64,000 nucleotides of DNA from Eledone cirrhosa (lineage: Eukaryota). The position numbers and the translations under genes are program-made. Under the pieces are notes generated by a model that was not told the DNA's origin, made no database searches, and was given only the letters and a program-made list of their open reading frames with translations. Location of the stretch: assembly GCA_964016885.1 (NCBI GenBank), contig OZ024742.1:266600001-266664000 (forward strand), read 5' to 3'. The stretch's first letter is position 1, and the number at the start of each line of letters is the position of its first letter. Shown here in pieces: positions 130 through 63,073 of this stretch.

Positions 130-2070
130 ATGGACGACTCAGAGTCACACCTTCCTCACAAACTAACACCTCACACCGACACCACCATTGTAAATATTAC
201 TACGTTTGCCAACACTAAAAATATAAGCAGTAGCAATATTTTAAATTTGTCTCAGGCAGACATTCATTTCCCGCCATTACCAATGACTGCAGGTGTTAAA
301 GCCGCCACCCCCACCACCACCACAGCGACAACAGAAACAAAAGAAAAAAGAAATTAACTCGTGATATCGAAATGAATTCAACCAAAATGAACTCTTCCAC
401 ACCGAACACCACTGAGGCCACCACCACCATAACTGAAACTAAAATTAACAATAACAAAAACAACGATAACAACAACAGCAACAATGAAATTAAGAAAACT
501 ACCCTGTCTTTTGCGAGAGTAGCAAAAAAGTGCGAAGCATTCCAGGTAACTCAGGAGGAATTAGAAGAAGCCAAAAAAATGGTAAAGAAAGATGGGTACA
601 GGGTCAGCCTCACCCCACCACATAATAAAATGGAGCATCGGCGCCCATGCACCGTGTCTTATCGGACGATTAACATAAAATCGCGCCCAGTGGAGCGGGC
701 ATCCGAGTCCCAAATCCAAAAAGCTTTGGGACATGTGTGGGCAAAAAAAACCCACATCAGAGTTGGGCAGAAATATGGAACCGTTGACGTGTACTTTGAA
801 ACACCACAGGAGGCCAGAGAACACTCCATAGCCCCATTAAGAAGTGACGACTTCACACTCGTCCCAAGCTATTGTGGCCAGAGACTCGCGAAGATCAGGA
901 TGACCCACGTTCCACTGGCCATCGGAATGGCTAATGGCTAATGGCTAATGGCTAATGGCTGCCGTCCTCGCCGGCATCGAAGCCAACACCAAGATAATCG
1001 AAATAGCGAAAGAAAAGCAGGAGAACTGGTCCGGATCTGGGATGGAGCTCCTGATCCAAGCGGACCAAAAAAGCATTGAGGAGATCCCAGAGGTAATAGA
1101 CCTCACTGACGGCAGCCACCTCACGGTAATCGTCGAGGGCAGAAGGCCTAGGTGTGTCGTTTGTGGTGAAGGAACCCTTCTAAGGGCTTTCTGCCCTCAG
1201 GCTAAAAGGTTGAGGCCACCTCTCCAACCCACCCCAGTGACTCAACCATCAACACCACCAGCAGCAGAGATGGCAGCAACAACTGTAGCAGCAACAATAG
1301 AAGCAACTGTAACAGCAACAACCCCAGCAACAGTATCAAAACCAACACCACCACCACCCAACGCGCCAGAACTAGCACCAGCGCCTACACCATCCACCAC
1401 GCCACAACAAAAACCAACGCCTGTGGAGGATTTTCCACTCCCCGACCTATTGCAACTGGAGACAGATTGTGACGACGAGGAGTGGGAAACGGTATCAGAA
1501 AAAAAGAAAAAGAAACCCCAAAAGAAAAAAAATCCCCTTCCTTCCCCCTTCAAAAACAAAATACAGAGGGAAACAAATAAACTATTAAACAAAAAAGTTA
1601 GGACAGATATGCCACCATCCACACCAGCATCACCAACCCCATCACCACAAACACCAACACCATCACCATCATTAACCCCAACACCACCATCACCAACACC
1701 ACAAAAGTCACCAAAAAGCGAAACAGAACCAAACCCACAACAAACGCAAACAAAACAAAACAACCAAAACGATACACACTACACAGCAATAAATTTGAAC
1801 AACAATCAATTATTACACTACATCCAACACAACAGCAGCATCACAGAAAAAGACTACACAACAACCCAAAAGTTCACACCACCTCCACACATACAAATCA
1901 CTCGCATCACACAGAAAACGTACACGACACTAAAACAAAAATTCCCCAAAGACATCGGAGACTTCCGACAAGCACTCCCCAGGAGGATTTATAAGGACAT
2001 CCTTCCGGAGGAGGCCAGAAGCAGTGAAAAGGATGGAGAAACCATTCTTCCTCTACGAGAAATAAGGTAA
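130..2070 (+). pseudogene. LINE ORF1 (gag-like, zinc knuckle, Pro/Thr-rich), disrupted
   Basis: ORF pieces 130-357, 372-941 and 955-2070. Five tandem AATGGCT units at 926-960 lie at one break. Homologous to 9000-10510. Confidence 0.8.
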
Positions 2071-2104
2071 GTGGTCTTTCCCATCTTTTACACTCCATTT
2101 CAAC

Positions 2105-5100
2105 ATGACCTCACTCAGAATAAGCAGCATAAATGCGCGTGGCATGGGGTCGTCACGGAAGCAGGGCCACCTGCTCAACGACCTCAGGTCACTAAACATA
2201 GATGTAGTGGCCATCAGCGAGACCAGAATCTCCGAAGCACGGGCCTTCGCGCCGATCTTCGGCGGCTACGATGTTTACGCATCTCCCAGCCGTCCTGGAT
2301 CGGGGGTGGAGTTGCTGTGCTTTTTCGGAGAGGTTTGGATCTCACCATACGGGCCATCTTCCTGGACCCACAGGGTAAGTTGGTGGTGCTGGACGTGACC
2401 AGCGGAGACGAGCAAGCTCTCAGGCTAGTGGCCGTCTATGCGCCGACAGGAGCAGGGCGGCCTGATTTCTTCCGGCGTCTGGAGACCTTTCTTGGAACGT
2501 CCCGCTCTTTAGTGTTAGTGGGCGACTGGAACGGGATCTTAGATGAATGTTGGGACTGTGTGGGATTAGCGGATAGGGGAGGAGGGTGCAAGAACCTAAC
2601 CAAATAGATAGGTCTAGCATAGCATGTCCACACTTCAAGATAGTCAGCTACACGGGACACAAATTCGTGCTCTGTGTGCTTGACTTAGATAGGCTTCATA
2701 GACGAGGACCCGTCTACTGGAAGCTAAACGCGTCCTTACCAGCGCGCAAGGCCTACAGAGACCGGATTAGCGAACTAGTTAAGCGGGCGTTGACGGGGGC
2801 CATCGTCAACAACAAGTGGTGGTTTGCTCTGAAAACAGCGATTAGAATAGAGTCCATTAGGTTTAGTAAGGCTTTAGCAATAGAGAAAAATAGAGCAGAG
2901 GAAGAACTGGTGAGAAAATTAGACGAGGCGCTTAGCAAAGGCATCGCGACCGACGTACTTGCTGCGAAATTGGCCCTTGACCAATTCTTCAATACAAAGC
3001 ACGAAGGCTGCGTTGTCAGAGCTAGGGTGCGTGCTCTCAGACCGAGGGGACGAAAGCCGTTCAATGGGCCCGAGTGGCGGAGGCGCGTCGTGCCAACAAA
3101 GCCACGATCCGGTCTTTGGTGGACCACGACGGGCGCATGCTACTCGATCCCGGGCAAATGTGTGAAGCTTTTCAGCGACACTTCGCACAGCTGTTCGGGG
3201 GCAGCGGTGGGCCGGATCGAGGGATGGACTTTAGTGTCTACCTCGACGGACTGCTGCGGCTCTCGGCCACTGAGGCGGAGTGTTGCGAAAAGCCGATAAC
3301 AGCAGCTGAAGTACGGAAGGCAATGACTGCACAAGGGGTAAATCGCCTGGTTTGGATGCTCTCCCCTATGAACTTTACGTACAGATGCCAGACCTGTTCG
3401 GAGGCCTCTTGGCGGACGTCTACTGCAACTGGCAACAGAACGGGAGAATTCCCAGCTCTGTGAGCCGAGGAGCTGTGGTGCTGCTGAGTAGGGATCCGAA
3501 CAAGGGGGATAACATAGATAATTTCAGGCCGATAATTCTGCTAAACACAGAGTTCAAGATTTTGGCCAAGGTGCTAGCAAAGAAGTTGGCGCTTGTCGTT
3601 GGTGGTCTGGTGGGAGAGGCGCAGACATGTGCCATTCCCGACAGATCCATCCACGACAACCTCCACCTCATGCTATACATTGTAGAGAGGGTAGCTAGGG
3701 AACCTGGCACGGGTGGGTCCTTGATCAATTTAGATCAGTAGAAAGGTTTCGATAGGGTCGACCATCGTTACCTAGCGGCAGTCCTGAGGGCGGCTGGCTT
3801 TGGGCCCGTCTTCAGAGGCTGGATCGCTGCCATGCACAGCGAAATCTGCTCTGTGGTGAGAGTGAACGGTCACCTTTCGGAACCGTTCAACATCATGCGC
3901 TCGGTCCGCCATTGATGTCTCCTCTCGTTCCTCTTGTACATATTGACTATCGAGCCATTACTGCACAAACTGGAGACGTTGAGGGGGGTCCCGCGCGAAC
4001 TAGGATGCGGAAGATCCGTGTCAGCATGTGCGGACGATGTCACCGTAGTGGTGTCGAAAGCCAAACACATCGAGGCGATCGACACTACACTAAGAGAATA
4101 CGAAGCGGTGACAGGAGCAATGATCAACCAGGAAAAGTCAGTGGGCCTGCAGCTCGGCACCTGGAGAGGAAGGTCTATGCCGTCCAACAGCGTCATCAGA
4201 CGCTGGACGGACGGACCGGTTAAATTGCCTGGGATCTGGTTCGGTCCGGACCTCCAGACGGACAAAAACTGGGACGAGGTGACGAGCAGGGTGGCTTCTC
4301 TCACCCAGAAATGGGCCGAGAGGAAGCTATCCCTGAAAGGTCGAGCGGAGGTGGCTAACGCGTACATCGCGTCCGTCATCTACTACCGCCTGACCGTCGT
4401 ACCTTGTCCTAAGCCCCGCCTGACTGCGCTGGAGCGTTTGCTCTTTCGCTTTTTGTGGAAGGGATGCGCTCCGATGGTCAGGCGGTCCATCTGCTGTCAA
4501 CACCCGCTACGTGGAGGGCTGGACATGCCGTGGCTGATGATGCGCAGACACGCGCTCAGGCTACGACATCTCCACCTCTTTCTCGACGGTGCTCAGGTGT
4601 GGTCGCCGTTTGCTAGACGCGTCTTTTCCCAGCTCGTCTCCTTGACGGAGCTGCAGTCCTGGGTCAAGCGAAGACCGAGAGGGGCGCTTGGAGACTGGAA
4701 TGTCTTCAGGCGCTCACAGCCCTCGACCAATTGGGCAATGTGATCGGTGGAAACTCCACCTTGGCGTTCTATAGAGGATTAGTGGAGGGGAAGAGCGACG
4801 ACGTACTTGGGGAAACTCTAGGCGTCGACGAAAATCAACTAGCCAATCTCTTCGGAAGAACTTTCGGGCCGGGGCCTATGGACAACTTCCAGAAATCTCT
4901 GGCCTGGCAGTGCTACCGAGGAGCTTTGCCAGTTCGGGATAAACTCTACAGGCATGGAGGTGCCGTCAGCCGGGCATGTACGAGATGCGCACAGGGCGAC
5001 GAAACCGTCCTGCACGCACTCGTCCAGTGTCGGACTTGTGGGTTTATGTCGAACACCTGCTGGCGCGTGTAGAACGGATCCAGCTATCAGCTGAGTCCAT

Positions 5101-8999: not shown

Positions 9000-11900
9000 G
9001 AATAACAACATCAACAACATCAACGCCAGCGCAAAACCAAATGTGTCTTTGCGAAAGCGGAGAACAAGAACGAAACGATTGAGGTAATCCAGGAACAACT
9101 GAATGAGACCAGACGAAAGGTGAAGAAAAATGGCTACAGGGTCAGCCTCACTCCTCCACCAAACACCATGTAACATCGCCGGCTATGAACGGTATGATAC
9201 TGTACAATTAGCACAAAAACGCGCCGAGTGGAGCGGGCATCTTAGTCTCAGATCCAAAAAGCTTTGGGACATGTGTGGGCTCAGAAAACTCACATCATAC
9301 GTGGACGAAGATATGGGACCATGGATGTGCTCCTTGGAACCCCACAGGAAGCCAGAGAGCACTTCATGGCTCCACTAAAGAGCGACGAGCTAACGCCAGT
9401 CCCAAGTTACTGCGGAAAAAAGCTCGTGAGAGTGAGGGTAACTCAAATACCGCCGGCCATAGAAAATCCCTGGCGTCCTCGCCAACATCGAGGACGAACA
9501 AAAGTCATCGAGGTAATAAGAATAAAACAAGAGAATTGGTCCGGATCTGGAATGGAGCTCCTGATCCAAGCAGACCAGAAAAAGATCCAGGAGATTCTAG
9601 AGGTAATAGACCTCGATGACGGCAGCTATGTCACCGTAATTGTCGAGAGTAGAAGGCCAAGGTGCGTAGTTTGTGGTGAAGGAACCCATTTAAAGGCCTT
9701 CTGCCCTCAGGTGTAGGCCAAAATATTAAGGGTAACTCTCCTGCCTACACCACTGGATCAACCAGCAACTGTAGCAGGAACGGTAGCAAAACCACCACCT
9801 CTACACACCACGCTAGAAGTAGCACTAGCGTCTCTACCATCCACCATGCCACAGACAACAACAACGCCTATGAAGGTCATTCTACTCCCCGACTCTCACA
9901 ACTGGAGACGGATTGGGACGAGGTGAAGGGGTTGAAAACTGTATCTGTAAAAAAACAGAAACCAGAAAAGAAAGAACCCTCTTCCTTCGTCCTAAAAAGA
10001 AATAGAGAGCGAAACAAACAAATAAAAAGTTAAGACAGCGACACCACCACCACACACACCAACATCACCAGCCCCATCACCACAAACACTAACAAAACCA
10101 CCATCATCAACCCTAACGCCATCATCAACACCACAAAAACTACCAACAAGCGAAACAGAAACAAACTCACAAGCGCGACCACAACAAACGCAAACACAAC
10201 GAAACACACTACACATCATTAAACATGAACAATAAACAATTATTGCACTACATCTAACACCACACCAGCACAACTGAGAAAAAAACTAGACAACACCCCA
10301 AATATTCACACCACCCACACACATACAAATCACACGTATCACACAGAAAACATACACAACACTAAAATCAAAATTCTCCAAGGACATCGAAGATATACGG
10401 CAAACACTTTCCAGGAGGATATATACAGAGATCCTTCCGGAGAGGGCCACAAACAGTCAGAAGGACGGGACAAAACCATCTTTCCCCCTCCACAAGAACT
10501 GAGGTAAGTAGTCTTTCCCACCTTTTCCCATTCATTTTCAACATCACCTTACTCAGAATAGGCAGCATAAATGCACGTAGCCTGGGGTCGTCATGGAAGC
10601 AGGGTTACCTGCTCAACGACCTCAAGTCTATGAACATAAATATGGTGGCTATCAGCAAGACCAGAATTTCCGAGGCACATGCCTTTGCACCCATCTTCGG
10701 CGGTCACGATGTGTACGCATCTCCAAGCCGGCCGGGTTCGGGAGGCGGCGTCGCTGTGTTGTTTCGGAGAGATGCTGAGGGCAGTCGTCAACAACAAATG
10801 GTGGTTCGCCCTGAAAAGGGCGATTAGAATAGAATCCGTTATGTTTAGTAAGGCGTTAGCAATAGAGAAAAATAGAACAGAGGGAGAACTAGTTAAAAAT
10901 TTAGACAAGGCGCTTATTAAAGGCATCGCGACCGACGTGCTTGCGGCGAAATTGGCCCTCAACCAATTCTTCAACGTAAAGCACGAAGGCAGTGTTGTCA
11001 GAGCTAGGGCGCATGCTCCCTGACACGAAGAGACGAAAGCCGTTCGATGGCCTGAGTGGGCAGAGGTGCCTCGTGGCAACAAATCTACGATCCGGTCTTT
11101 GGAGGATCACGATGGACGCATGTTACTCGAACCCAGACAAATGTGTGTGGCTTTCCAGCGACACTTCGCTGAGATGTTCGAGGGCAGCGGCCGGCCGGAT
11201 CGCGGGATGGACTTTAGTGCCTACCTCGAGGGACTACGATGGCTCTCGTCCACTGAGGCGGAGTGTTGCGAAAAGCCGATAACAGCCGCTGAAGTACGGG
11301 CGGCAATGACTAGCTGCACGAGGGGTAAATCGCCTGGTTTCGATGGTCTGCCCTACGAGCTTAACCTACACATGCCAGTGCAACTCGCAACAGAACGGGA
11401 AGAATTCCCAGCTCTATGAGCTGAGGAGCGGTAATGCTGCTGAGAAAGGACCTGAACAGGGCGATAACACATTTTTCCTGGCCCATCACTCAGCTACACA
11501 CAGAGTTCAAGATTTTGGCCAAGGTACTAGCAAAGAGGTTGACGTTTGTCGTCGGTTGTCTGATGGCAGAGGCGCAGACATTGGCCATTCAAGACAGATC
11601 CAACCACGTCAACCTCCATCTCATGCGATACATCGTGACACGGGTGGGTCCTTGATCAATTTAGATCAGTCGAAAGCTTTGGATAGCGTCGACCATCGTT
11701 ATCTGGCGGTGGTCCTGAGGGCGACCGGCTTTGAGCCAGTCTTCAGAGGCTGGATCACTGCCATGCACAGCGACATCTGTTATGTAGTGAGAGAGACCGG
11801 TCACCTTTCGGAACCGTTTAGCACCATGCGCTCGGTCCGTCAAGGATGTCCCTTCTCGTGCCTGTTGTATGTATTGAAGCTCGAGCCATTACTGCACAAA

Positions 11901-13440
11901 CTGGAGAGGTTGAGGGGCGTCCTGCCCGAACTGGGATGCTGGAGAACCTTGTCAGCATATGCCGACGCCGTCACCGTAGTGGTGTCGAACGCCAAACACA
12001 TCGAGGCAATCGGCTCTTAAGAGACGGGAACAATGATCAACCAGGAAATGTCTATGGGCCTGCGGCTCGGACCTGGAGAGGCAGGTCCATGCTGCCCAAC
12101 AGCGTCACCGGGCGCTGAACGGACGGACCGGTTAAATTTCTTGGTGTCTGTTTCGGTCCGGACCTCCAGACGGACAAAAACTGGGACGAGGTGACGAGCA
12201 GTGTAGCCTCTCTCACCCAGAAATAGGCCGAGAGGAAGATATCCATGAACATTGAGCGGAGGTGGCGAATGCGTACATTGCGTATGTAAATTCTACCACC
12301 TGACCGTCATGCCTTGTCCTAAGCCTCGCCTGACTGTGCTGGAACGTTTGCTCTTTCTCTTTTTGTGAAAGGGACGCGGTCAGGCGGTCCACCTGCTGTC
12401 AACACCAGCTACGCGGAGGGCTGGAAATGCCATGGCTGATGATGCACAGACTACGGCATCTCCACTTCTTTCTCGACGGTGATTAGGTGTGGTCGCAGTT
12501 TGCTAGACAAGTATTTCCCCAGCTCGTTTCCTTGACGGATCTGCAGTCCTGGTTCAAGCGAAGACCGAGAGGGAGACTGGAATATCTTCAGGCACTCACA
12601 GCCCTCGACCAGTCGGGCGATGCGATCGGTGGAAACTCCACCTTGGCGTTCTATAGAGGGTTAGTGGAGGGAAAGAGCGACAACGTCATTGGGGAGAATC
12701 TGGGCGTCGACGAAAATCAACCAGCCAATCTCTTCGGGAGAACTTTCGAGCCGGTGCGGACAACTTCTAGAAATCCCTGCCTGGCAGTACTATCGAGGAG
12801 CTTTGCCAGTTCGGAATAAAATCTACAGGCATGGAAGTGCAGTCAGCCGTGCCTGTTCGAGATGCGCGCAGGGCAACGAAACCGTACTGCACGCACCTGT
12901 CCAGTGTCCGAGCATCGCTGACTTGTAGGTTTATGTCGAACACTTGCTGTCGCGTGTAAGACGGACCTGGCTATCGGCTGAATCCATCATGAAGATTGCC
13001 CCGCAACCCTACTTTAACCAGGTGACTCCCTCATTTAACCTTTTCAGGTTTCACCTGAAAAGGAAATTCAGGGTGGAGAGAGAAGTGCTGCCTTCCAGCC
13101 AGTTTGTTGAAACGTGGATGAGAGAGGCAAGAATGGCCCGAGTGAGTGGGCCTGTTCTGAGCGTGTGCCTATAGTATCGTAGGAGTAAAACTGCAAGATG
13201 GCATTTGCCCTAGCGGTCAGGGTGACCGTGACTTATTTTGTGGGCTTTCTCCACTAGTGACTTTCGGAAGTCTCCCCACCTATTGGGTAATTTTTCCTTG
13301 TTTCTTTTTTTTTTGATACATATAATTTTGTTTTTGTTTTATTTTACATTCAGAAACACCCATTTCTACCGTCCTGTATTGTCCTGTGCTGTCTCTAATG
13401 TTATACTTTATGTCAACCCTTGTGGTTAATAAAGAAAGCG
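9000..13440 (+). mobile_element. L1/Tx1-like LINE, decayed (copy 3, close relative of copy 1)
   Basis: CVVCGEGTHLKAFC, SVRQGCPFS and SAYADAVT motifs, with a large deletion at ~10772. The 3' UTR is similar to copy 1, with AATAAA at 13428-13433. Confidence 0.88.
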
Positions 13441-17431: not shown

Positions 17432-17665
17432 TGGAGCCACGTGGCCTAGTGGTACTGTTGTTGGTCTTACGATCATAATGTCGTGGGTTCGATTCGTGGG
17501 TTGCATGTTGCGTTCCTGAACAAAACACTTCATTTCACGTTGCTCCAGTTTGTTCAGCTGAGAATGAGTACCAGCAATAGCTGGGGGGTTAATCCCGCGA
17601 TGGACTGGCGTCCTGTCCAGGAGGGAGTCTTGTACTCTCAGTCCCTTAACGCCATGAAACTGAGA
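17432..17665 (+). mobile_element. tRNA-derived SINE, family B
   Basis: A-box TGGCCTAGTGG and B-box GGTTCGATTC followed by a unique body. Confidence 0.7.
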
Positions 17666-18035
17666 CAAGGCCAGCAATTATCCCAGTACATTACTGGTAC
17701 TTTATTTTATCGACCCCGTAAGGATGAAAGGCAAAGTTAACCACGGCGGGATTTGAACTCAGACCGTAAAGGGACGTAACTATGCTGGAAAGCTTGGCGT
17801 CCGACCCTCTACTGATACTGCCAATCCACAGCCTTGGTATTAATAATAATAATTGTTTCTACTTTTGGCACAAGGCCAGCAATTATCCCAGTGTATTACT
17901 GGTACTTTATTTTATCGACCCCGTAAGGATGAAAGGCAAAGTTAACCTCGGTGGGATTTGAACTCAGACCATAAAGGGACGTAACTATGCTGGAAAGCTT
18001 GGCGTCCGAGCCTCTACCGATACTGCCAATCCACC
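17666..18035 (-). mobile_element. Two tandem SINE family A copies
   Basis: Reverse complement of 13442-13625, occurring twice (about 17666-17830 and 17845-18035). Confidence 0.82.
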
Positions 18036-19501: not shown

Positions 19502-19551
<50 letters not shown>

Positions 19552-19704
19552 ATAAATGCTCTGAAATAGCGATATATATGTGAATATAGACATAGAATAT
19601 TCGAAAATATTCTGTATGTTTATAATAAACATTTTGAAGACCTAATCGCTATAGAATAGAATACGTCACGTATTACAATTAGATTCTCGATAAAAGCAAG
19701 GGAA

Positions 19705-19747
19705 GTAATCTACGCGTTTCATTCTTGTTAGAAATCATCAGGACCAC
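19705..19747 (-). ncRNA. Type I hammerhead ribozyme (array 1, inverted arm)
   Basis: Exact reverse complement of 20291-20333. Confidence 0.88.
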
Positions 19748-20290
19748 ATATCCAGTGCTTTTATCGAGAATGACACAGCTAGAGACTTATAGAATACTTA
19801 GCTGTGTACAGGAACTGGTTTGAAAGAGCGGTTGCCGGTCCGGCAGAAATTAGAAATTGGAATAAATGCTCTGAAATAGCGATATATATGTGAATATAGA
19901 CATAGAATATTCGAAAATATTCTGTATGTTTATAATAAACATTTTGAAGACCTAATCGCTATAGAATAGAATACGTCACGTATTACAATTAGATTCTCGA
20001 TTTAGATTCACGTATTACAATTAGATCCTTGCTTTTATCGAGAATCTAATTGTAATACGTGACGTATTCTATTCTATAGCGATTAGGTCTTCAAAATGTT
20101 TATTATAAACATACAGAATATTTTCGAATATTCTATGTCTATATTCACATATATATCGCTATTTCAGAGCATTTATTCCAATTTCTAATTTCTGCCGGAC
20201 CGGCAACCGCTCTTTCAAACCAGTTCCTGTACACAGCTAAGTATTCTATAAGTCTCTAGCTGTGTCATTCTCGATAAAAGCACTGGATAT

Positions 20291-20333
20291 GTGGTCCTGA
20301 TGATTTCTAACAAGAATGAAACGCGTAGATTAC
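20291..20333 (+). ncRNA. Type I hammerhead ribozyme (array 1)
   Basis: GTGGTC [CTGATGA] tTTCT-aaca-AGAAt [GAAA]CGCG[TA] GATTAC. Six-bp stem I, palindromic stem III ACGCGT, predicted cleavage after A20327. Confidence 0.9.
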
Positions 20334-20600
20334 TTCCCTTGCTTTTATCGAGAATCTAATTGTAATACGTGACGTATTCTATTCTATAGCGATTAGGTCT
20401 TCAAAATGTTTATTATAAACATACAGAATATTTTCGAATATTCTATGTCTATATTCACATATATATCGCTATTTCAGAGCATTTATTCCAATTTCTAATT
20501 TCTGCCGGACCTGCAACCGCTCTTTCAAACCAGTTCCTGTACACAGCTAAGTATTCTATAAGTCTCTAGCTGTGTCATTCTCGATAAAAGCACTGGATAT

Positions 20601-20643
20601 GTGGTCCTGATGATTTCTAACAAGAATGAAACGCGTAGATTAC
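20601..20643 (+). ncRNA. Type I hammerhead ribozyme (array 1)
   Basis: Identical to 20291-20333. Confidence 0.9.
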
Positions 20644-20910
20644 TTCCCTTGCTTTTATCGAGAATCTAATTGTAATACGTGACGTATTCTATTCTATAGC
20701 GATTAGGTCTTCAAAATGTTTATTATAAACATACAGAATATTTTCGAATATTCTATGTCTATATTCACATATATATCGCTATTTCAGAGCATTTATTCCA
20801 ATTGCTAATTTCTGCCGGACCGGCAACCGCTCTTTCAAACCAGTTCCTGTACACAGCTAAGTATTCTATAAGTCTCTAGCTGTGTCATTCTCGATAAAAG
20901 CACTGGATAT

Positions 20911-20953
20911 GTGGTCCTGATGATTTCTAACAAGAATGAAACGCGTAGATTAC
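20911..20953 (+). ncRNA. Type I hammerhead ribozyme (array 1)
   Basis: Identical to 20291-20333. Confidence 0.9.
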
Positions 20954-21220
20954 TTCCCTTGCTTTTATCGAGAATCTAATTGTAATACGTGACGTATTCT
21001 ATTCTATAGCGATTAGGTCTTCAAAATGTTTATTATAAACATACAGAATATTTTCGAATATTCTATGTCTATATTCACATATATATCGCTATTTCAGAGC
21101 ATTTATTCCAATTTCTAATTTCTGCCGGACCGGCAACCGCTCTTTCAAACCAGTTCCTGTACACAGCTAAGTATTCTATAAGTCTCTAGCTGTGTCATTC
21201 TCGATAAAAGCACTGGATAT

Positions 21221-21263
21221 GTGGTCCTGATGATTTCTAACAAGAATGAAACGCGTAGATTAC
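21221..21263 (+). ncRNA. Type I hammerhead ribozyme (array 1)
   Basis: Identical to 20291-20333. Confidence 0.9.
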
Positions 21264-21530
21264 TTCCCTTGCTTTTATCGAGAATCTAATTGTAATACGT
21301 GACGTATTCTATTCTATAGCGATTAGGTCTTCAAAATGTTTATTATAAACATACAGAATATTTTCGAATATTCTATGTCTATATTCACATATATATCGCT
21401 ATTTCAGAGCATTTATTCCAATTTCTAATTTCTGCCGGACCGGCAACCGCTCTTTCAAACCAGTTCCTGTACACAGCTAAGTATTCTATAAGTCTCTAGC
21501 TGTGTCATTCTCGATAAAAGCACTGGATAT

Positions 21531-21573
21531 GTGGTCCTGATGATTTCTAACAAGAATGAAATGCGTAGATTAC
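21531..21573 (+). ncRNA. Type I hammerhead ribozyme (array 1, stem III variant)
   Basis: As 20291-20333 but GAAATGCGTA (C to T in stem III). Confidence 0.82.
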
Positions 21574-21693
21574 TTCCCTTGCTTTTATCGAGAATCTAAT
21601 TGTAATACGTGACGTATTCTATTCTATAGCGATTAGGTCTTCAAAATGTTTATTATAAACATACAGAATATTTTCGAATATTCTATGTCTATA

Positions 21694-21731
<38 letters not shown>

Positions 21732-42177: not shown

Positions 42178-42552
42178 TAATAATTGTTTCTACTTTCAGC
42201 ACAAGGTCAGCAATTATCCCAGTGTATTACTGGTGCTTTATTTTATCGACCCCCCGTTTTTCAATGAAAGCCAAAGTTAACCTCGGCGGGATTTGAACTC
42301 AGACCGCAAAGGGGCGTAACTCTTTGCTGCAAAGCATGGCGTCCGACCCTCAACCGACACTGCATCCCGTATTAATAATTGATTATATTTTTGGCACAAG
42401 GCCAGCAATTACCCAGTACATTACTGGTACTTTATTTTATCGACCCCGTAAGGATGAAAAGCAAAGTTAACCTCGACGGGATTTGAACTCAGACCGTAAT
42501 AGGACGTAACTATGCTAGAAAGCATGACGTCCAACCCTCTACCGATACTGCT
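42178..42552 (-). mobile_element. Two tandem SINE family A copies
   Basis: Two reverse-complement matches, each preceded by CATCCCGTATTAATAATTG. Confidence 0.82.
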
Positions 42553-44569: not shown

Positions 44570-46170
44570 AGTCAATCATCATCAGGTCCAGCTTGCTCGG
44601 CTTTCTACGACACTCTTCCTCAATCCATCTCTGTCTCTCATAGCGTGTGCCAGTTCTTTCGCAGTGCATCCAGTATCGTCCTCAAGTTGCTTGACGTATG
44701 TCTCCTTGGGATGACCAGCGCTTCTTGCTCCATGAGATGGACTCCATAACAACACATCACCTGCTATTTCTTCCTTGCTGCGCCAACAGTGGCCAGCAAA
44801 TCTGAGTCTCTGTCCACGTATTGACCTGCTGATAGGTGGTATATTTCCATAGAGATCCTTATTTGTTGAGTGTTCCCTCCAAGACACGTTTAAAGCAGCG
44901 CGGAGCATACGTGTGTATGCCCCGTCTAGCTTTTTCTCCAGTTTCGACGTTAGCGTCCAAGTGATAGAGCCATAAACAAGCACAGACTCCACAGCAGCTC
45001 TGAAGAAATTCCTTTTCAGTTTGGCCGGCAGGTTTGATTTCCATATCTTTTCCATTGCATTCAATGCTCCCCAGGCTTTTCCCAGTCTGATGTTAACATC
45101 ATGTTCTGTGGAGGCGATATAGCTACCTAGCTATTTGAAGTCGTCAACTTGCTTGATTATATCGCCGCTTAGACTTCGCATACCAACTGAGGAGTCTTGG
45201 TTCAGGCAAATATATTCTGTTTTTCCTGCGTTGACATCGAGTCCGATTTCCTTGGCAACTGATTCGATGCTGTGAAGTAGTGATGTTGCATCCTTAAGGT
45301 AGTCAGCGAGGACCGCTAAATCATCCGCAGAGTCAGCATCGGTGATTTTCTGAGTTGCATGGCGTCTACACTTTCGCTTTGTGAGAGTGAAACCAAGCCC
45401 TAAGTTTTCGTCCAGGGCTTTTCTCAATACATAGTCGAGGCAGATGATAAAAATATATGGTGCAAGAGTATCCCCTTGGAGTACTCCTGCAATGATGTCA
45501 AAGAAGTTGGTATCTCCATCAGGTGAGAGCACCATTGCGCGGGTGTTTTTATATAACATCATGATAGCATTTACTGTTTCCCTTGGCAAGCCGTAGGCTA
45601 GAAGTATCTCTCTCATCCTCCCACGATGGATGGAATCGAATGCTTTTGAAAAGTCAATAAACAGGAGAGTTGCTGGGAGGTTTTTAGCTTTTACGCCTTC
45701 CAAGATACGCCGAATTGTAAGTATTTGCCCTGATGTTGATCTGTTGGTGCGGAAGCCATTTTGTTTTTTTCTCAGCAAGGGGTCAATGACAGGTCTTATT
45801 CTGTCAAACAGCATGAAATTGTATATCTTTGCGGCAATTGCCATTAGTGTTATGCCACGGTAATTTTTAGCCATTCCAAGATCGCCCTCAGTCCATTTGT
45901 CTATGGGGTCTTGATTATAGACACCATTACACAACTCTAGTAGGATTGGGTGAAATTCAGGTACCTTCCACACTTCAGCTGGGATCTCGTCGAGTCCGCA
46001 CGCTTTTCCGTTACCAATACTTTTCACTGCCTTCTGTAGTTCCTCCATAGTGAAAGGTCCTTTCTATATTTGGTGTTCCTCTGTAAAAACGGGTATTATT
46101 TCTTCTTCGATGATCTGTGTTGCTTTGCCAAGTAGGTTCTGAAAATGTTGTTGCAACAGTTTTAAACGAG
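44570..46170 (-). mobile_element. RTE-type LINE, 5'-truncated
   Basis: ORFs 45131-46048 (NYRGITL, FIDFSKAFDSI, GVLQGDTLAPYIF, DSADDLA) and 44582-45064, with a short (TGA)n tail. Confidence 0.9.
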
Positions 46171-58679: not shown

Positions 58680-60472
58680 ATATTTCAATATTCAAATCCT
58701 CAAAAAATAAGTTCATTTTCTCCGACAAAACTAAAAACTTATACGAAGTTAATAATAATTTACATGACCAACTCTTAATAGATAACATCACCTCTAAATA
58801 CCAAATAGCTAATATAATCACGTATAATAATATAAATAAGGAAGCTAAAGAATTAGCTAGTGTTTTAAAAATAGATAATAGAACAGAAAAACTTGCTAAA
58901 CGTAATGCCTATATCACCCTCAAAGATCACAAACCTGATTTTATTAATCGTCCTAGTTGTAGATTAATCAACCCTGCTAAGACTGATATCGGTCTTGCTA
59001 GCAACATTTTTTAAAATAATATAAACACAGATTAGAAGTAAGCCTGAATTACTCCAATGGATAAATAGCTCTTCCGTAGTACATTGGTTTAATAATATTA
59101 AAGATAAATATAGTTCTAGATTCACCCAATTTGACATTGTAGACTTCTACCCGTCTATTACTCACCCTCTTTTAGCGAAAGCCTTAAATTTCGCAAGAAA
59201 GTTTATCAATATTTCTGATATTGAAGAGAATGTCAGCTTGGTTGCTAGAAACACTCTACTTTTTACTAATAATGACACTTGGGTAAAAATATCTAACCCA
59301 GAGAACTCATTCGATGTCTGAATGGGTTCTTTTGACAGTGCTGATGTTTGTGATTTAGTCGGCCTATTCTTCCTACACACACTTAAAGAGAAATTCCCTA
59401 ACCATATTTTTGGGCTTTACCGCGACGATGGTCTAATACTTTCCCATACCACCATAAGCCATAACTTAGATAGATTAAGGAAAGACTTAATAAAAACCTT
59501 CGTTAGTTTTAATCTTAAAATTACTATTGACACTAAACTTTCCAATGTTAATTTTCTAGATATAAACCTAGATCTGCCTACTGCTTCTTATAAACCGTAC
59601 CATAAACCTAATGAAAATTTAAAATATATAAATAAAGGCTCTTGCCATCCTCCTATAGTTTTTAAAAACCTTATCCCTAATATTAGCCGTAGGATCTCCA
59701 CCCTCTCTTCCTCAGAAGCTATTTTCAATAAGGCATCCCCCTACTATAATAAAGCCCTACTATAATAAAGCTCTTAAAATAGCGGATTTAGCGAACCGAT
59801 TAAGTACATACCCAACAATACTAACTCCTTTAAACATAATAATAGGAAAAGAAAAATAATCTGGTCCACACCCCCTACTCTTTAGCAGTTAAAACTAATG
59901 TTGGCAAGAAATTCCTAGAGCTCTTAGATAAACATTTCCCTAGAACACATAGATACTATAAGATCTTCAATAGAAACTGTGTCAAAATTAGCTACTCCTG
60001 CGGTCCCCCTATTAAATCTTAATACGAAAAAGGTAAATGCAACACCAAAGCCATTGTATATGCGGCTAAAGTGACAACCATCAGCAACAACCTACCAGCC
60101 ACCAGCGAACGATATGTGGGTATGACACAAGACAAATTCAAAACGCGTTATTACTCACATATCGCATCTTTCCGACATCCAGAAAAAAGATTTACAACAG
60201 CTCTGGCTAGCAGAATATGGGATTTGAAAGACCAAGGTATCCAATATAAATTGGATTGGTCAATTTTGAACCTATCTAAAGATTATGCAAGAGGAACAAG
60301 AAGATGCACACTCTGCATAAGTGAAAAATATTGGATTTTACAGAACCTTAAATCACCAAAAACCTGCCTAAACGCAAAAACAGAAATTTTTACCAGTTGC
60401 CCACACACGAAATCACACTTGCTCTCCAGCTCATATAAACTTAACTCACTTTCAGATACTTATCACCCATAA
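58680..60472 (+). pseudogene. PLE RT-GIY-YIG ORF, 5'-truncated and frameshifted
   Basis: ORF pieces 59322-59765 and 60071-60472 plus upstream frames. A short tandem duplication at ~59740-59772 breaks the frame. Confidence 0.85.
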
Positions 60473-61672: not shown

Positions 61673-61750
61673 AATTGCCTTGTCCGATGAACGAATGAGG
61701 ACGTTTTTCGTATTCGTCTTATTCGGGAAACCTCTGGCAATGAGGTAATT
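61673..61750 (+). ncRNA. Hammerhead with C4 core in 3' pLTR (cleavage triplet mutated to GCA)
   Basis: An 11-bp stem I AATTGCCTTGT/ATGAGGTAATT, CCGATGA at 61684 and GAAAC at 61727. Confidence 0.7.
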
Positions 61751-61799
61751 ATATTGTATTGTTTATTATACATTATATATATATATATATATATTGTTA

Positions 61800-62565
61800 T
61801 ACTTTGGGAGGGTCATGTTGCCAATAAGAAACACACGCACCAGTTGCTTTCACTTCAATTTATTATATATTTATAAATTTATAAATTTACAAATCTACAA
61901 ACTTATATATTTCTGGTTGGTTGGTTGGTTCCACAACCAGATAGTTGTTTATATATAGTCATAGTCCTTTCGTCACACACTCTGTGACCTCTTCAGTGAC
62001 TGGGGATTCCTTTCTTTGTTTCTGTGCCTTTCCTTTCTTCTGTCCTACGCCATTTTGTTTCTGTGTATGTGTTGTGTGCTCAGTTTGCGCATGCGCCACA
62101 TCCGGATGTCTGTGTGTGTTTGTGTTCATTTATCTATTTGTTTATTTATTTATTTATTTATTGTTGGTTGGTTGTTTGTTCTATGTGTGTGTGTGTTTTC
62201 ATTTTGTCCTTAATTGTAAGTTGTGATGTTGCTGTTCCACTCATATTTTCTATTTAATTTTGTTTGTAATTCTTTTATGCTTACTGCCTCTGTAATTTGC
62301 CTAAACATTGCATCTTTTCTGTGTGTGGATTCTATTTTTATTTCTATGTTCTCTAATTTACCCCTGTGTTCTATCTTAGCATGTTGGTAGAGCACAGATG
62401 ATTCTTTATTATCTTGAAGGTCTCGCCAGTGTTCATTTATTCGTTCCCCTATACTACGAGCTGTCTCACCTATGTACACTATATTTTTGTTTCTACATTG
62501 TCCTTCAGTACATCTTATGCTATACACTACATTTCTAGTTTTACAGTTAATATGGGGGCTTATTT
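61800..62565 (-). mobile_element. Penelope-like element 3' part (GIY-YIG + pLTR)
   Basis: ORF 62210-62527 YSIRC..C..IVYIGETARSIGERINEH..RQITEAVSI, with a downstream HHR. Confidence 0.85.
61957..62001 (-). ncRNA. Type I hammerhead ribozyme
   Basis: The minus strand reads AGTCA [CTGAAGA] g GTCACA-gagtg-TGTGAC [GAAA]GGAC[TA] TGACT. Confidence 0.85.
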
Positions 62566-62569
62566 TACA

Positions 62570-62875
62570 GGTTATACAGGTTATGACCTTAGCAACCTGT
62601 GCCCTACAAGACCAGCATGAGGCAGACCACCTACCATTACCTCAATGGCCAAGAAAACCCACACAGATAGATGGAACGGGTGGACCAGAGCCATACGGAC
62701 ACCTGAAAACCACGATGAACTGAAGAAAATGATTGCACATGCGGTAGGGGCCAGCATAAAATTAACCCTTAAGGAACATATGTTCAAATTTAATGGTAAA
62801 ACATATGCCCAAGAGGAAGGAGCAGCCATTGGTGTTAGCATTGCAGGCGACATAGCTAACTTATTATGTATGTAA
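62570..62875 (+). mobile_element. PLE RT fragment, inverted relative to the adjacent GIY-YIG piece
   Basis: HMFKFNGKTYAQEEGAAIGVSIAGDIANL (RT motif B-like). Confidence 0.7.
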
Positions 62876-63073
62876 AGTAAAAGTTAAACAGAATTAACAA
62901 CATAATCGGTACAGAAGGGATATATTAGGTTAACGCTTGATATAGCAGGAAGAGGATCTTAACGTTTCGGACGCTAGTCCTTCATCAGAAGAAATAATAA
63001 GAAATAAAATAAATCGAGGGGACGGGTGTGTTGGAATTGGAAAAAATGTCTTTAGATAAAAATAACAGGTCCA

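Follow-up and report, generated by a model that had tools for sequence, protein, structure and literature searches.

PLE insertions carry an inverted, 5'-truncated arm, have a 30-40-bp tail that is often present at one end only, and favor (TA)n targets, and the RTs of PLEs form the sister group to that of telomerase (PMC8557442). The purified protein of Poseidon_Ac, a predicted dimer, cuts and extends both DNA strands; its RT starts at two internal sites in a stem-loop downstream of the hammerhead, and these starts delimit the tail (PMC11167929). The protein needs the first 172 nt of the ORF (PMC11167929). Animal non-LTR retrozymes, which have been proposed to be non-autonomous derivatives of PLE pLTRs (bioRxiv 10.64898/2026.07.22.740005), are non-coding and low in GC, consist of short tandem units that each carry a type I hammerhead, and are dispersed in many copies (PMC7229834; bioRxiv 10.64898/2026.07.22.740005). 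The available text of these two reports describes no conserved non-ribozyme domain, RT start sites or two-armed tail architecture.

We found that two arrays in the window, the whole 64,000-nucleotide stretch of Eledone cirrhosa DNA analyzed here, are two subfamilies of one non-coding type I hammerhead retrozyme. The element has the same features as the described animal retrozymes, ours being known from sequence alone, and fits a new member of the non-LTR retrozyme class. Monomer GC is ~0.31-0.35, and no ORF of at least 130 aa overlaps array 1 or array 2. A pattern made of the linker plus P1 (both described below) gave 21,336 matches in the 3.0-Gb genome and none when reversed as a control; judged by these matches, retrozyme copies are dispersed and high in copy number. 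An inverted, 5'-truncated arm lies beside a direct arm in both window arrays and at most other loci. The arms and hammerheads of the two arrays are as follows.

19548..21706, array 1 insertion, lineage A: inverted arm and direct arm between (TA)n tracts
19548-20026, - strand, array 1 inverted arm: 3' end at site 2
+ strand, array 1 direct arm: 5.4 units of 310 nt, 3' end at site 1
20291..20333, + strand, array 1 type I hammerhead, sequence-based: stem I GTGGTC/GATTAC
20297-20303 (CTGATGA) and 20318-20321 (GAAA), + strand, array 1 hammerhead core
+ strand, array 1 hammerhead stem III: palindromic CGCG, predicted cut after 20327
36780..38518, array 2 insertion, lineage B2: inverted arm and direct arm between (TA)n tracts
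array 2 inverted arm: 3.5 units of 316-318 nt, 3' end at a minor site ~8 nt beyond site 2
array 2 direct arm: 3' end at site 1
38015..38067, + strand, array 2 type I hammerhead, U3-A8 core variant, sequence-based
38023-38029 (TTGATAA) and 38044-38047 (GAAA), + strand, array 2 hammerhead core
+ strand, array 2 hammerhead stem III: CATG-T-CATG, predicted cut after 38058

Core hammerhead motifs are present in every unit of both arrays. The catalytic core and three stems read CUGAUGA/GAAA/UA in lineage A and take the U3-A8 form in lineages B, D, and E, a covariation known in PLE hammerheads (PMC4209133); hammerheads are also predicted in lineages C-F. At the gathering score, Rfam leaves the array hammerheads unmatched (that of array 1 has a weak match to HH9, with 17.7 bits against a gathering score of 52), as may be expected from a minimal stem III. 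Position 20293 is G in the window's units and A in four contig runs of unrecorded type that contain near-identical lineage A sequence. With G, a stem I pair that would be A-U becomes G-U, and both arms have the change. A second short hammerhead repeat family occurs at 38549-38609 (-) of the window and also in L136, L137, and L146. Its core and stem II (CTGATGATTTCT..AGAATGAAAC) are as in the lineage A hammerhead, the remainder is unlike it, and module exchange between the two is possible.

Two arrays are too few for a covariation test, and we therefore collected further lineages. Six were recovered (A-F), with subfamilies including B1/B2, D1/D2, and E1/E2. Lineage C comes from 904 matches of a pattern built to exclude A and B, and lineage F was located via a hammerhead descriptor, independently of the domain. 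Pairwise identity of the A-E consensuses is roughly 45-90%, a figure that flawed seeds lower in places. One unit (L231:1230-1640) is chimeric, with the 5' part of an F/D-like lineage and a C-type body, which suggests that one RT switched templates between RNAs of different subfamilies. At L189, a piece of ~28 bp covering site 1 and the P1 3' strand has been amplified as a tandem minisatellite.

The earlier note had proposed a conserved, covarying RNA domain 3' of the hammerhead. Such a domain is real, but its extent and several of its details need correction. All the helix strings that had been named are where they were placed in array 1, with equivalents in array 2 at 38092-38207. The boundary of 20364-20480 is too short, as the covarying fold reaches ~20523. 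The corrected domain is composed as follows.

20364..20378, + strand, H1: 5' hairpin AATACG/CGTATT
20386..20393, + strand, P1 5' strand ATAGCGAT: ATAGC core invariant in six lineages
20396..20405, + strand, linker: GGTC(T) at 20396-20400 is the 5' strand of a predicted pseudoknot
20406..20422, + strand, H2: hairpin ATGTTT/AAACAT
20426..20443, + strand, H3: hairpin GAATATT-TTCG-AATATTC with a 4-nt loop
20457, + strand, end site 1: after TTCA, exact base uncertain within ~10 nt
20458..20491, + strand, 34-nt Penelope-type tail between end sites 1 and 2: holds the P1 3' and P5 5' strands
20465..20472, + strand, P1 3' strand ATCGCTAT
20476..20523, + strand, P5: helix AGAGC (20476-20480) / GCTCT (20519-20523), enclosing site 2 and P6
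20491, + strand, end site 2: after TTCCAA
20503..20515, + strand, P6: hairpin with loop GGACC (20507-20511), of which GACC is the predicted pseudoknot 3' strand
38092..38258, + strand, array 2 domain: H1 38092-38106, P1 38117-38122/38202-38207, linker 38127-38136, H2, H3
38209-38214/38253-38258, + strand, array 2 P5
38242-38245, + strand, array 2 pseudoknot partner GACC

H1 is a hairpin of 5-6 bp in lineages A-E with differing arm sequences; the array 1 and array 2 versions are equivalent by position but not column by column. The closing helix P1, which bounds a multiloop containing one to three hairpins, is kept in all six lineages, but its core ATAGC/GCTAT shows no variation and therefore supplies no covariation; changes are confined to the end pairs, some of which are broken. 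The compensatory T-A to C-G change claimed for H2 is present in lineage B. H3 has three compensatory pairs and two wobbles. Its loop had been read as a swap of UUCG for GNRA; we reject a strict swap since the loop has at least seven sequences: TTCG (A, F), GCAA (B), GCCA/ATCA/ACCA/GCTA (C, D), and ATTC (E2). The UUCG loop is closed by a U-A pair in A and is a canonical c(UUCG)g in one F copy. The linker is not invariant as had been thought, reading GGTCTTCAAA in A-C, GGCTTTCAAA in D, GGCTGTCAAA in E, and GGCTTCCTAAA in F, and is slow to change (0.30 substitutions per column vs ~1.5-1.75 in other loops). Parts of the fold are dispensable in places, since H2 is absent from F, H3 is deleted in E1, and the P6 stem has decayed in B2, where GACC is kept. 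A fourth multiloop hairpin, H4, was rejected as a conserved element: it holds in B and C and fails in D (77% paired).

Outside the boundary first drawn, P5 covaries (GGAGC/GCTCC in E, AGAGT/ACTCT in D1, TGAAGC/GCTTCA in F), with one further compensatory pair in lineage F. The P6 unit at 20503..20515 carries a private G>T in its 3' stem arm. The linker covaries with the P6 hairpin loop ~110 nt downstream, pairing as GGUC/GACC in A-C, GGCU/AGCC in D, and GGCU/GGCC in E. We consider a pseudoknot between the linker and the P6 loop likely. In an exhaustive scan of column pairs, seven helices of at least 4 bp fit all five family majorities, and only H3, P5, and the linker-P6 loop pairing have at least two compensatory pairs. 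Shuffles gave at least one chance helix with two compensatory pairs in 7.5-13% of cases, and three such helices arose in 0/1000 column shuffles. Among held-out sequences, L229 has a C-like body with linkers GGCC/GGCU/GACC and the loop GGGCC (GGCC/GGCC pairing), its sister L234 has GGUC with GGGUC, including wobbles (the linker taken from the neighboring unit), and L232 keeps the GGCU/AGCC pairing. Lineage F joins the linker GGCUU with a different, 7-bp P6 stem and the loop GAGCC. Against the pseudoknot, the chimeric unit of L231 has mismatched strands, and where the P6 loop allows it, in A, C, D, and F, folding prefers to close the loop by a competing G-C pair, leaving a triloop.

With the first set of subfamily consensuses, RNAalifold returned exactly the H1, P1, H2, and H3 helices of the earlier note; with revised consensuses, it returned P1, H2, H3, and P5. 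Run unconstrained on 24 partly decayed real copies, it returned H2 and P5 only. In the alignment of 24 real copies (A2), we scored 860 pair cells. Of these, 88.4% are paired, compared with 81.1% in shuffles (0/500) and 23-49% with slid partners, and 77 cells are changed on both sides vs 33.5 in shuffles (0/500). The number of A2 pairs changed on both sides, 14 vs 11.9 shuffled, is not significant (82/500). For the five pseudoknot columns, 93.3% of cells are paired vs 80.8% shuffled (0/500), with 4 doubly changed pairs vs 2.6 (37/500) and two changes on one branch of A2. A tree-aware null was drawn 20000 times on ten subfamily consensuses. H2 and H3 together underwent 10 substitutions and have 0/124 broken cells, where 22.2 +/- 4.3 were expected (0/20000). 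P1 has 2 broken cells vs 16.1 expected, its two outer pairs being left out because the D2 5' end consensus is a projection or tie artefact, as is the B1 P6 consensus. P5 has 2 vs 11.9 (p=0.012) and P6 has 6 vs 19.9 (p=0.001). All of these tests are partly circular because the helices were picked on some of the sequences and then tested. As a control, private post-insertion changes in single copies break pairs in 157/259 cases. Single-sequence folding is weakly better than that of shuffles and does not single out the ribozyme strand of array 1 (z -1.86 for + vs -2.62 for -), and other stretches of the monomer outside the domain also self-pair. Wobble polarity leans weakly to the + strand (6 G-U vs 3 A-C states).

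Where do the insertions end? Whole-monomer searches gave 42 loci, in which 31 distinct arm ends are visible, and 29 of these fall in two zones 34 nt apart (2 lie elsewhere). Site 1, after unit position ~130, accounts for 15 arm ends, one of them doubtful; its exact base is uncertain because the template there is TA-like. Site 2 accounts for 14, at unit positions 164-173 (at the site itself or up to 8 nt past it). When loci of the same insertion are merged, 14 of the 15 two-ended insertions combine site 1 with site 2, and none combines 1+1 or 2+2. Thus, the tail is present at one end only, each of these 14 having one tailed and one untailed arm. The zones bracket the P1/P5 junction: site 1 precedes the P1 3' strand by ~10 nt, and site 2 follows the P5 5' strand by ~11 nt. 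Lineages A and B have a tail of 34 nt, and counting by eye gives the same length for F. A wider, anchor-biased count places ends in the same zones in C and D and at site 2 in E; both zones are used in F. A preference for (TA)n is visible in 110/134 termini that adjoin a microsatellite (also an anchor-biased count). In 3/3 informative lineage A loci, haplotype variants are common to both arms.

Poseidon_Ac offers the closest comparison. It likewise has two internal start sites downstream of the hammerhead that define a tail of 30-40 nt, its targets are AT-rich, and both strands are extended (PMC11167929). By eye, a helix CAUGGCC/GGCCAUG in its template ends 11-18 nt before the +111-118 start (PMC11167929). 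It differs in that its start region is part of an autonomous element's ORF and contains an AC-rich stem-loop, for which the available text mentions neither covariation nor a pseudoknot, and by eye the region bears no sequence likeness to the retrozyme domain (PMC11167929). Since the retrozyme ends match PLE tails and the Poseidon_Ac start sites, they are most likely RT starts.

These ends bear on the function of the domain, for which RT recognition, ligation, and a promoter had all been suggested. Because insertion ends fall within the domain, at two positions separated by 34 nt, RT recognition and initiation is the role with positive evidence; ligation is without any, and a promoter is disfavored. 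We therefore consider that the domain is probably a cis-acting RT recognition and initiation element for a PLE RT-endonuclease supplied in trans. The conserved fold around the RT starts is most likely what the PLE protein recognizes, by analogy with Poseidon_Ac. The position of the ends inside the fold is a coincidence of location, not proof of binding.

A different account is that the domain belongs to a general circRNA architecture that serves stability, hammerhead folding, or ligation by a host RtcB-type ligase, and that RT starts nearby since A/U-rich loops can pair with (TA)n primers. High self-pairing has been predicted for retrozyme circRNAs, whose circularization is proposed to depend on tRNA ligases of the host (PMC7229834). 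In our family, the hammerhead stem I extension self-pairs in each lineage and a UA-like run follows site 1. However, the fixed 34-nt spacing and the rule of one arm per site are left unexplained by this account, site 2 ends are not TA-like, the domain lies 40-190 nt away from the ligation junction, and other A/U-rich loops of the monomer are unused as ends, so we regard it as unlikely. We give less credence still to a constraint at the level of DNA, in which the tail region would signal recognition by the endonuclease, or resolution, in cDNA or genomic DNA, with the tail itself left behind when an intermediate is resolved. The D. virilis Penelope endonuclease required tail sequence for plasmid cleavage (PMC11167929), tails have been ascribed to EN-mediated resolution (PMC8557442), and the array 1 minus strand folds equally well. 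Compensatory pairing argues against a double-stranded DNA element, however, and the fixed G-U pairs on the ribozyme strand, the pseudoknot wobble intermediates (L229, L234, E), and the c(UUCG)g of the F copy all suit RNA. Moreover, the tail ends of Poseidon_Ac coincide with RT starts (PMC11167929).

The conserved linker could also serve as an internal promoter or, through its CAAAATG, as the context in which a short peptide starts, given that PLE pLTRs are thought to contain promoters (PMC11167929) and that the linker is slow to change. We find this highly improbable because linker changes are mirrored in the P6 loop. A promoter role is further disfavored since neither monomer has a Pol III A or B box (a similar B-box pattern has 8 sites elsewhere in the window) and the ribozyme strand has T4-T5 runs; identity as a Pol III SINE was rejected on the same grounds, the runs being present in both monomers. 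A peptide from the linker ATG was rejected because of a frameshift in A and the lack of an ATG in F. A scan with the sigma-70 pattern, a bacterial consensus irrelevant to an animal, gave matches at chance level. Could the covariation itself be a by-product of shared ancestry and A/T-rich palindromes? The independent branches are few, single-sequence z-scores are weak, and some segments are microsatellite-like. Against this stand the tree-aware null, the slid-partner controls (23-49% vs 88% paired), the lack of three such helices in any of 1000 column shuffles, and the agreement of the independently found lineage F, and we consider a by-product the least probable explanation.

For the preferred role in RT recognition and initiation, we propose the following mechanism. 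The PLE protein would nick both strands of a (TA)n tract and bind the folded domain of the retrozyme RNA. Sites 1 and 2 would each prime one of the two cDNAs, probably on the same RNA, and copying round a circular or multimeric template would produce tandem units. A template switch would then fuse the 5'-truncated arms in head-to-head orientation. The steps that we infer for the retrozyme are its transcription, its cleavage and circularity, binding by the protein, and priming on a single molecule. More tentatively, the pseudoknotted core may present the start sites near-symmetrically, ~10-11 nt on each side of the P1/P5 junction, such that one dimeric PLE RT-endonuclease primes both nicked strands on a single (circular) RNA; we consider this possible, with the odds against it.

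Which element might supply the protein? We searched for a partner by PF01541, by protein search, and in 40 fetched regions, all scanned by nhmmer and a covariance model. The earlier note had suggested PLE 3' UTRs as a place to search for the domain; we found no autonomous PLE carrying it among 99 PLE endonuclease loci of the same genome, a small sample of the genome's PLEs. The matches were retrozyme copies inserted nearby and weak ones, of which the best is a 29-bit match at a Neptune-like 3' end (L119), the remaining weak matches being at most 27 bits. An apparent relative beside a PLE in L102 and L245 was rejected as a separate insertion across a TA tract. The PLEs of the GIY-YIG loci L101-L150 and L239-L258, which we take to be Neptune-like from their motifs, have the same (TA)n targets and two alternative 3' ends, as well as the U3-A8 core (TTGATAA/TTGAAAA) of retrozyme lineages B, D, and E. 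They differ in that their pLTRs do not match the retrozyme domain.

Several other elements were observed in these surveys. Among the Neptune-like PLEs, young families that carry a U3-A8 hammerhead and end at either of two 3' positions are found at L131, L132, L136-L138, and L142 and at L102, L104, L147, and L148; in the L131 family, the 3' ends are ~68 nt apart by eye, longer than the usual 30-40. The window itself contains a PLE family with a C-terminal endonuclease at 59322-60472 and 61680-61780 (+), which numbers at least 150 copies in the genome (90-95% aa identity) and has a hammerhead with a long stem II as well as two alternative 3' ends. A GIY-YIG endonuclease fragment (PF01541) with its own hammerhead lies at 62210-62641 (-), and a further hammerhead-bearing pLTR-like repeat lies at ~62880-62990 (-) and recurs near 38990. 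Decayed LINE-like elements with endonuclease and RT-like frames occupy 300-5072, 9212-12020, and 44582-46063, and dimers of a 190-205-bp SINE-like repeat occupy 17665-18034 and 42168-42551.

The description of the domain as an unnamed structured motif was borne out. No Rfam family covers it, and the literature that we searched, mostly open-access, describes no covarying or pseudoknotted initiation domain of a PLE or retrozyme. As far as searched, a pseudoknotted fold around two tail-defining sites is thus undescribed, and the supplement of PMC11167929 may show a fold for Poseidon_Ac.

Little is known of how PLE RTs, the closest relatives of telomerase, choose an RNA and initiate within it, and in the literature found one element has been studied in vitro. 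A second question is which enzyme mobilizes animal retrozymes. The family is tied to the PLE machinery by mechanism (tail, inverted arms, and TA targets), not by co-occurrence. It provides a covariation-defined substrate of ~160 nt with natural compensatory variants and mapped ends, which makes both questions testable. In the telomerase RNA template/pseudoknot domain and the R2 3' UTR pseudoknot, an RT template lies in helix-closed, pseudoknotted RNA. The retrozyme has a predicted pseudoknot beside its template, an architectural likeness that does not imply homology, and unlike telomerase RNA it has two start sites and would be copied processively over whole units rather than by repeat addition. 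If true, priming by a dimer on one RNA would be the structural rule behind PLE tails and inverted-arm insertions, and the retrozyme domain would be a counterpart of the telomerase RNA template/pseudoknot domain in the sister lineage of telomerase.
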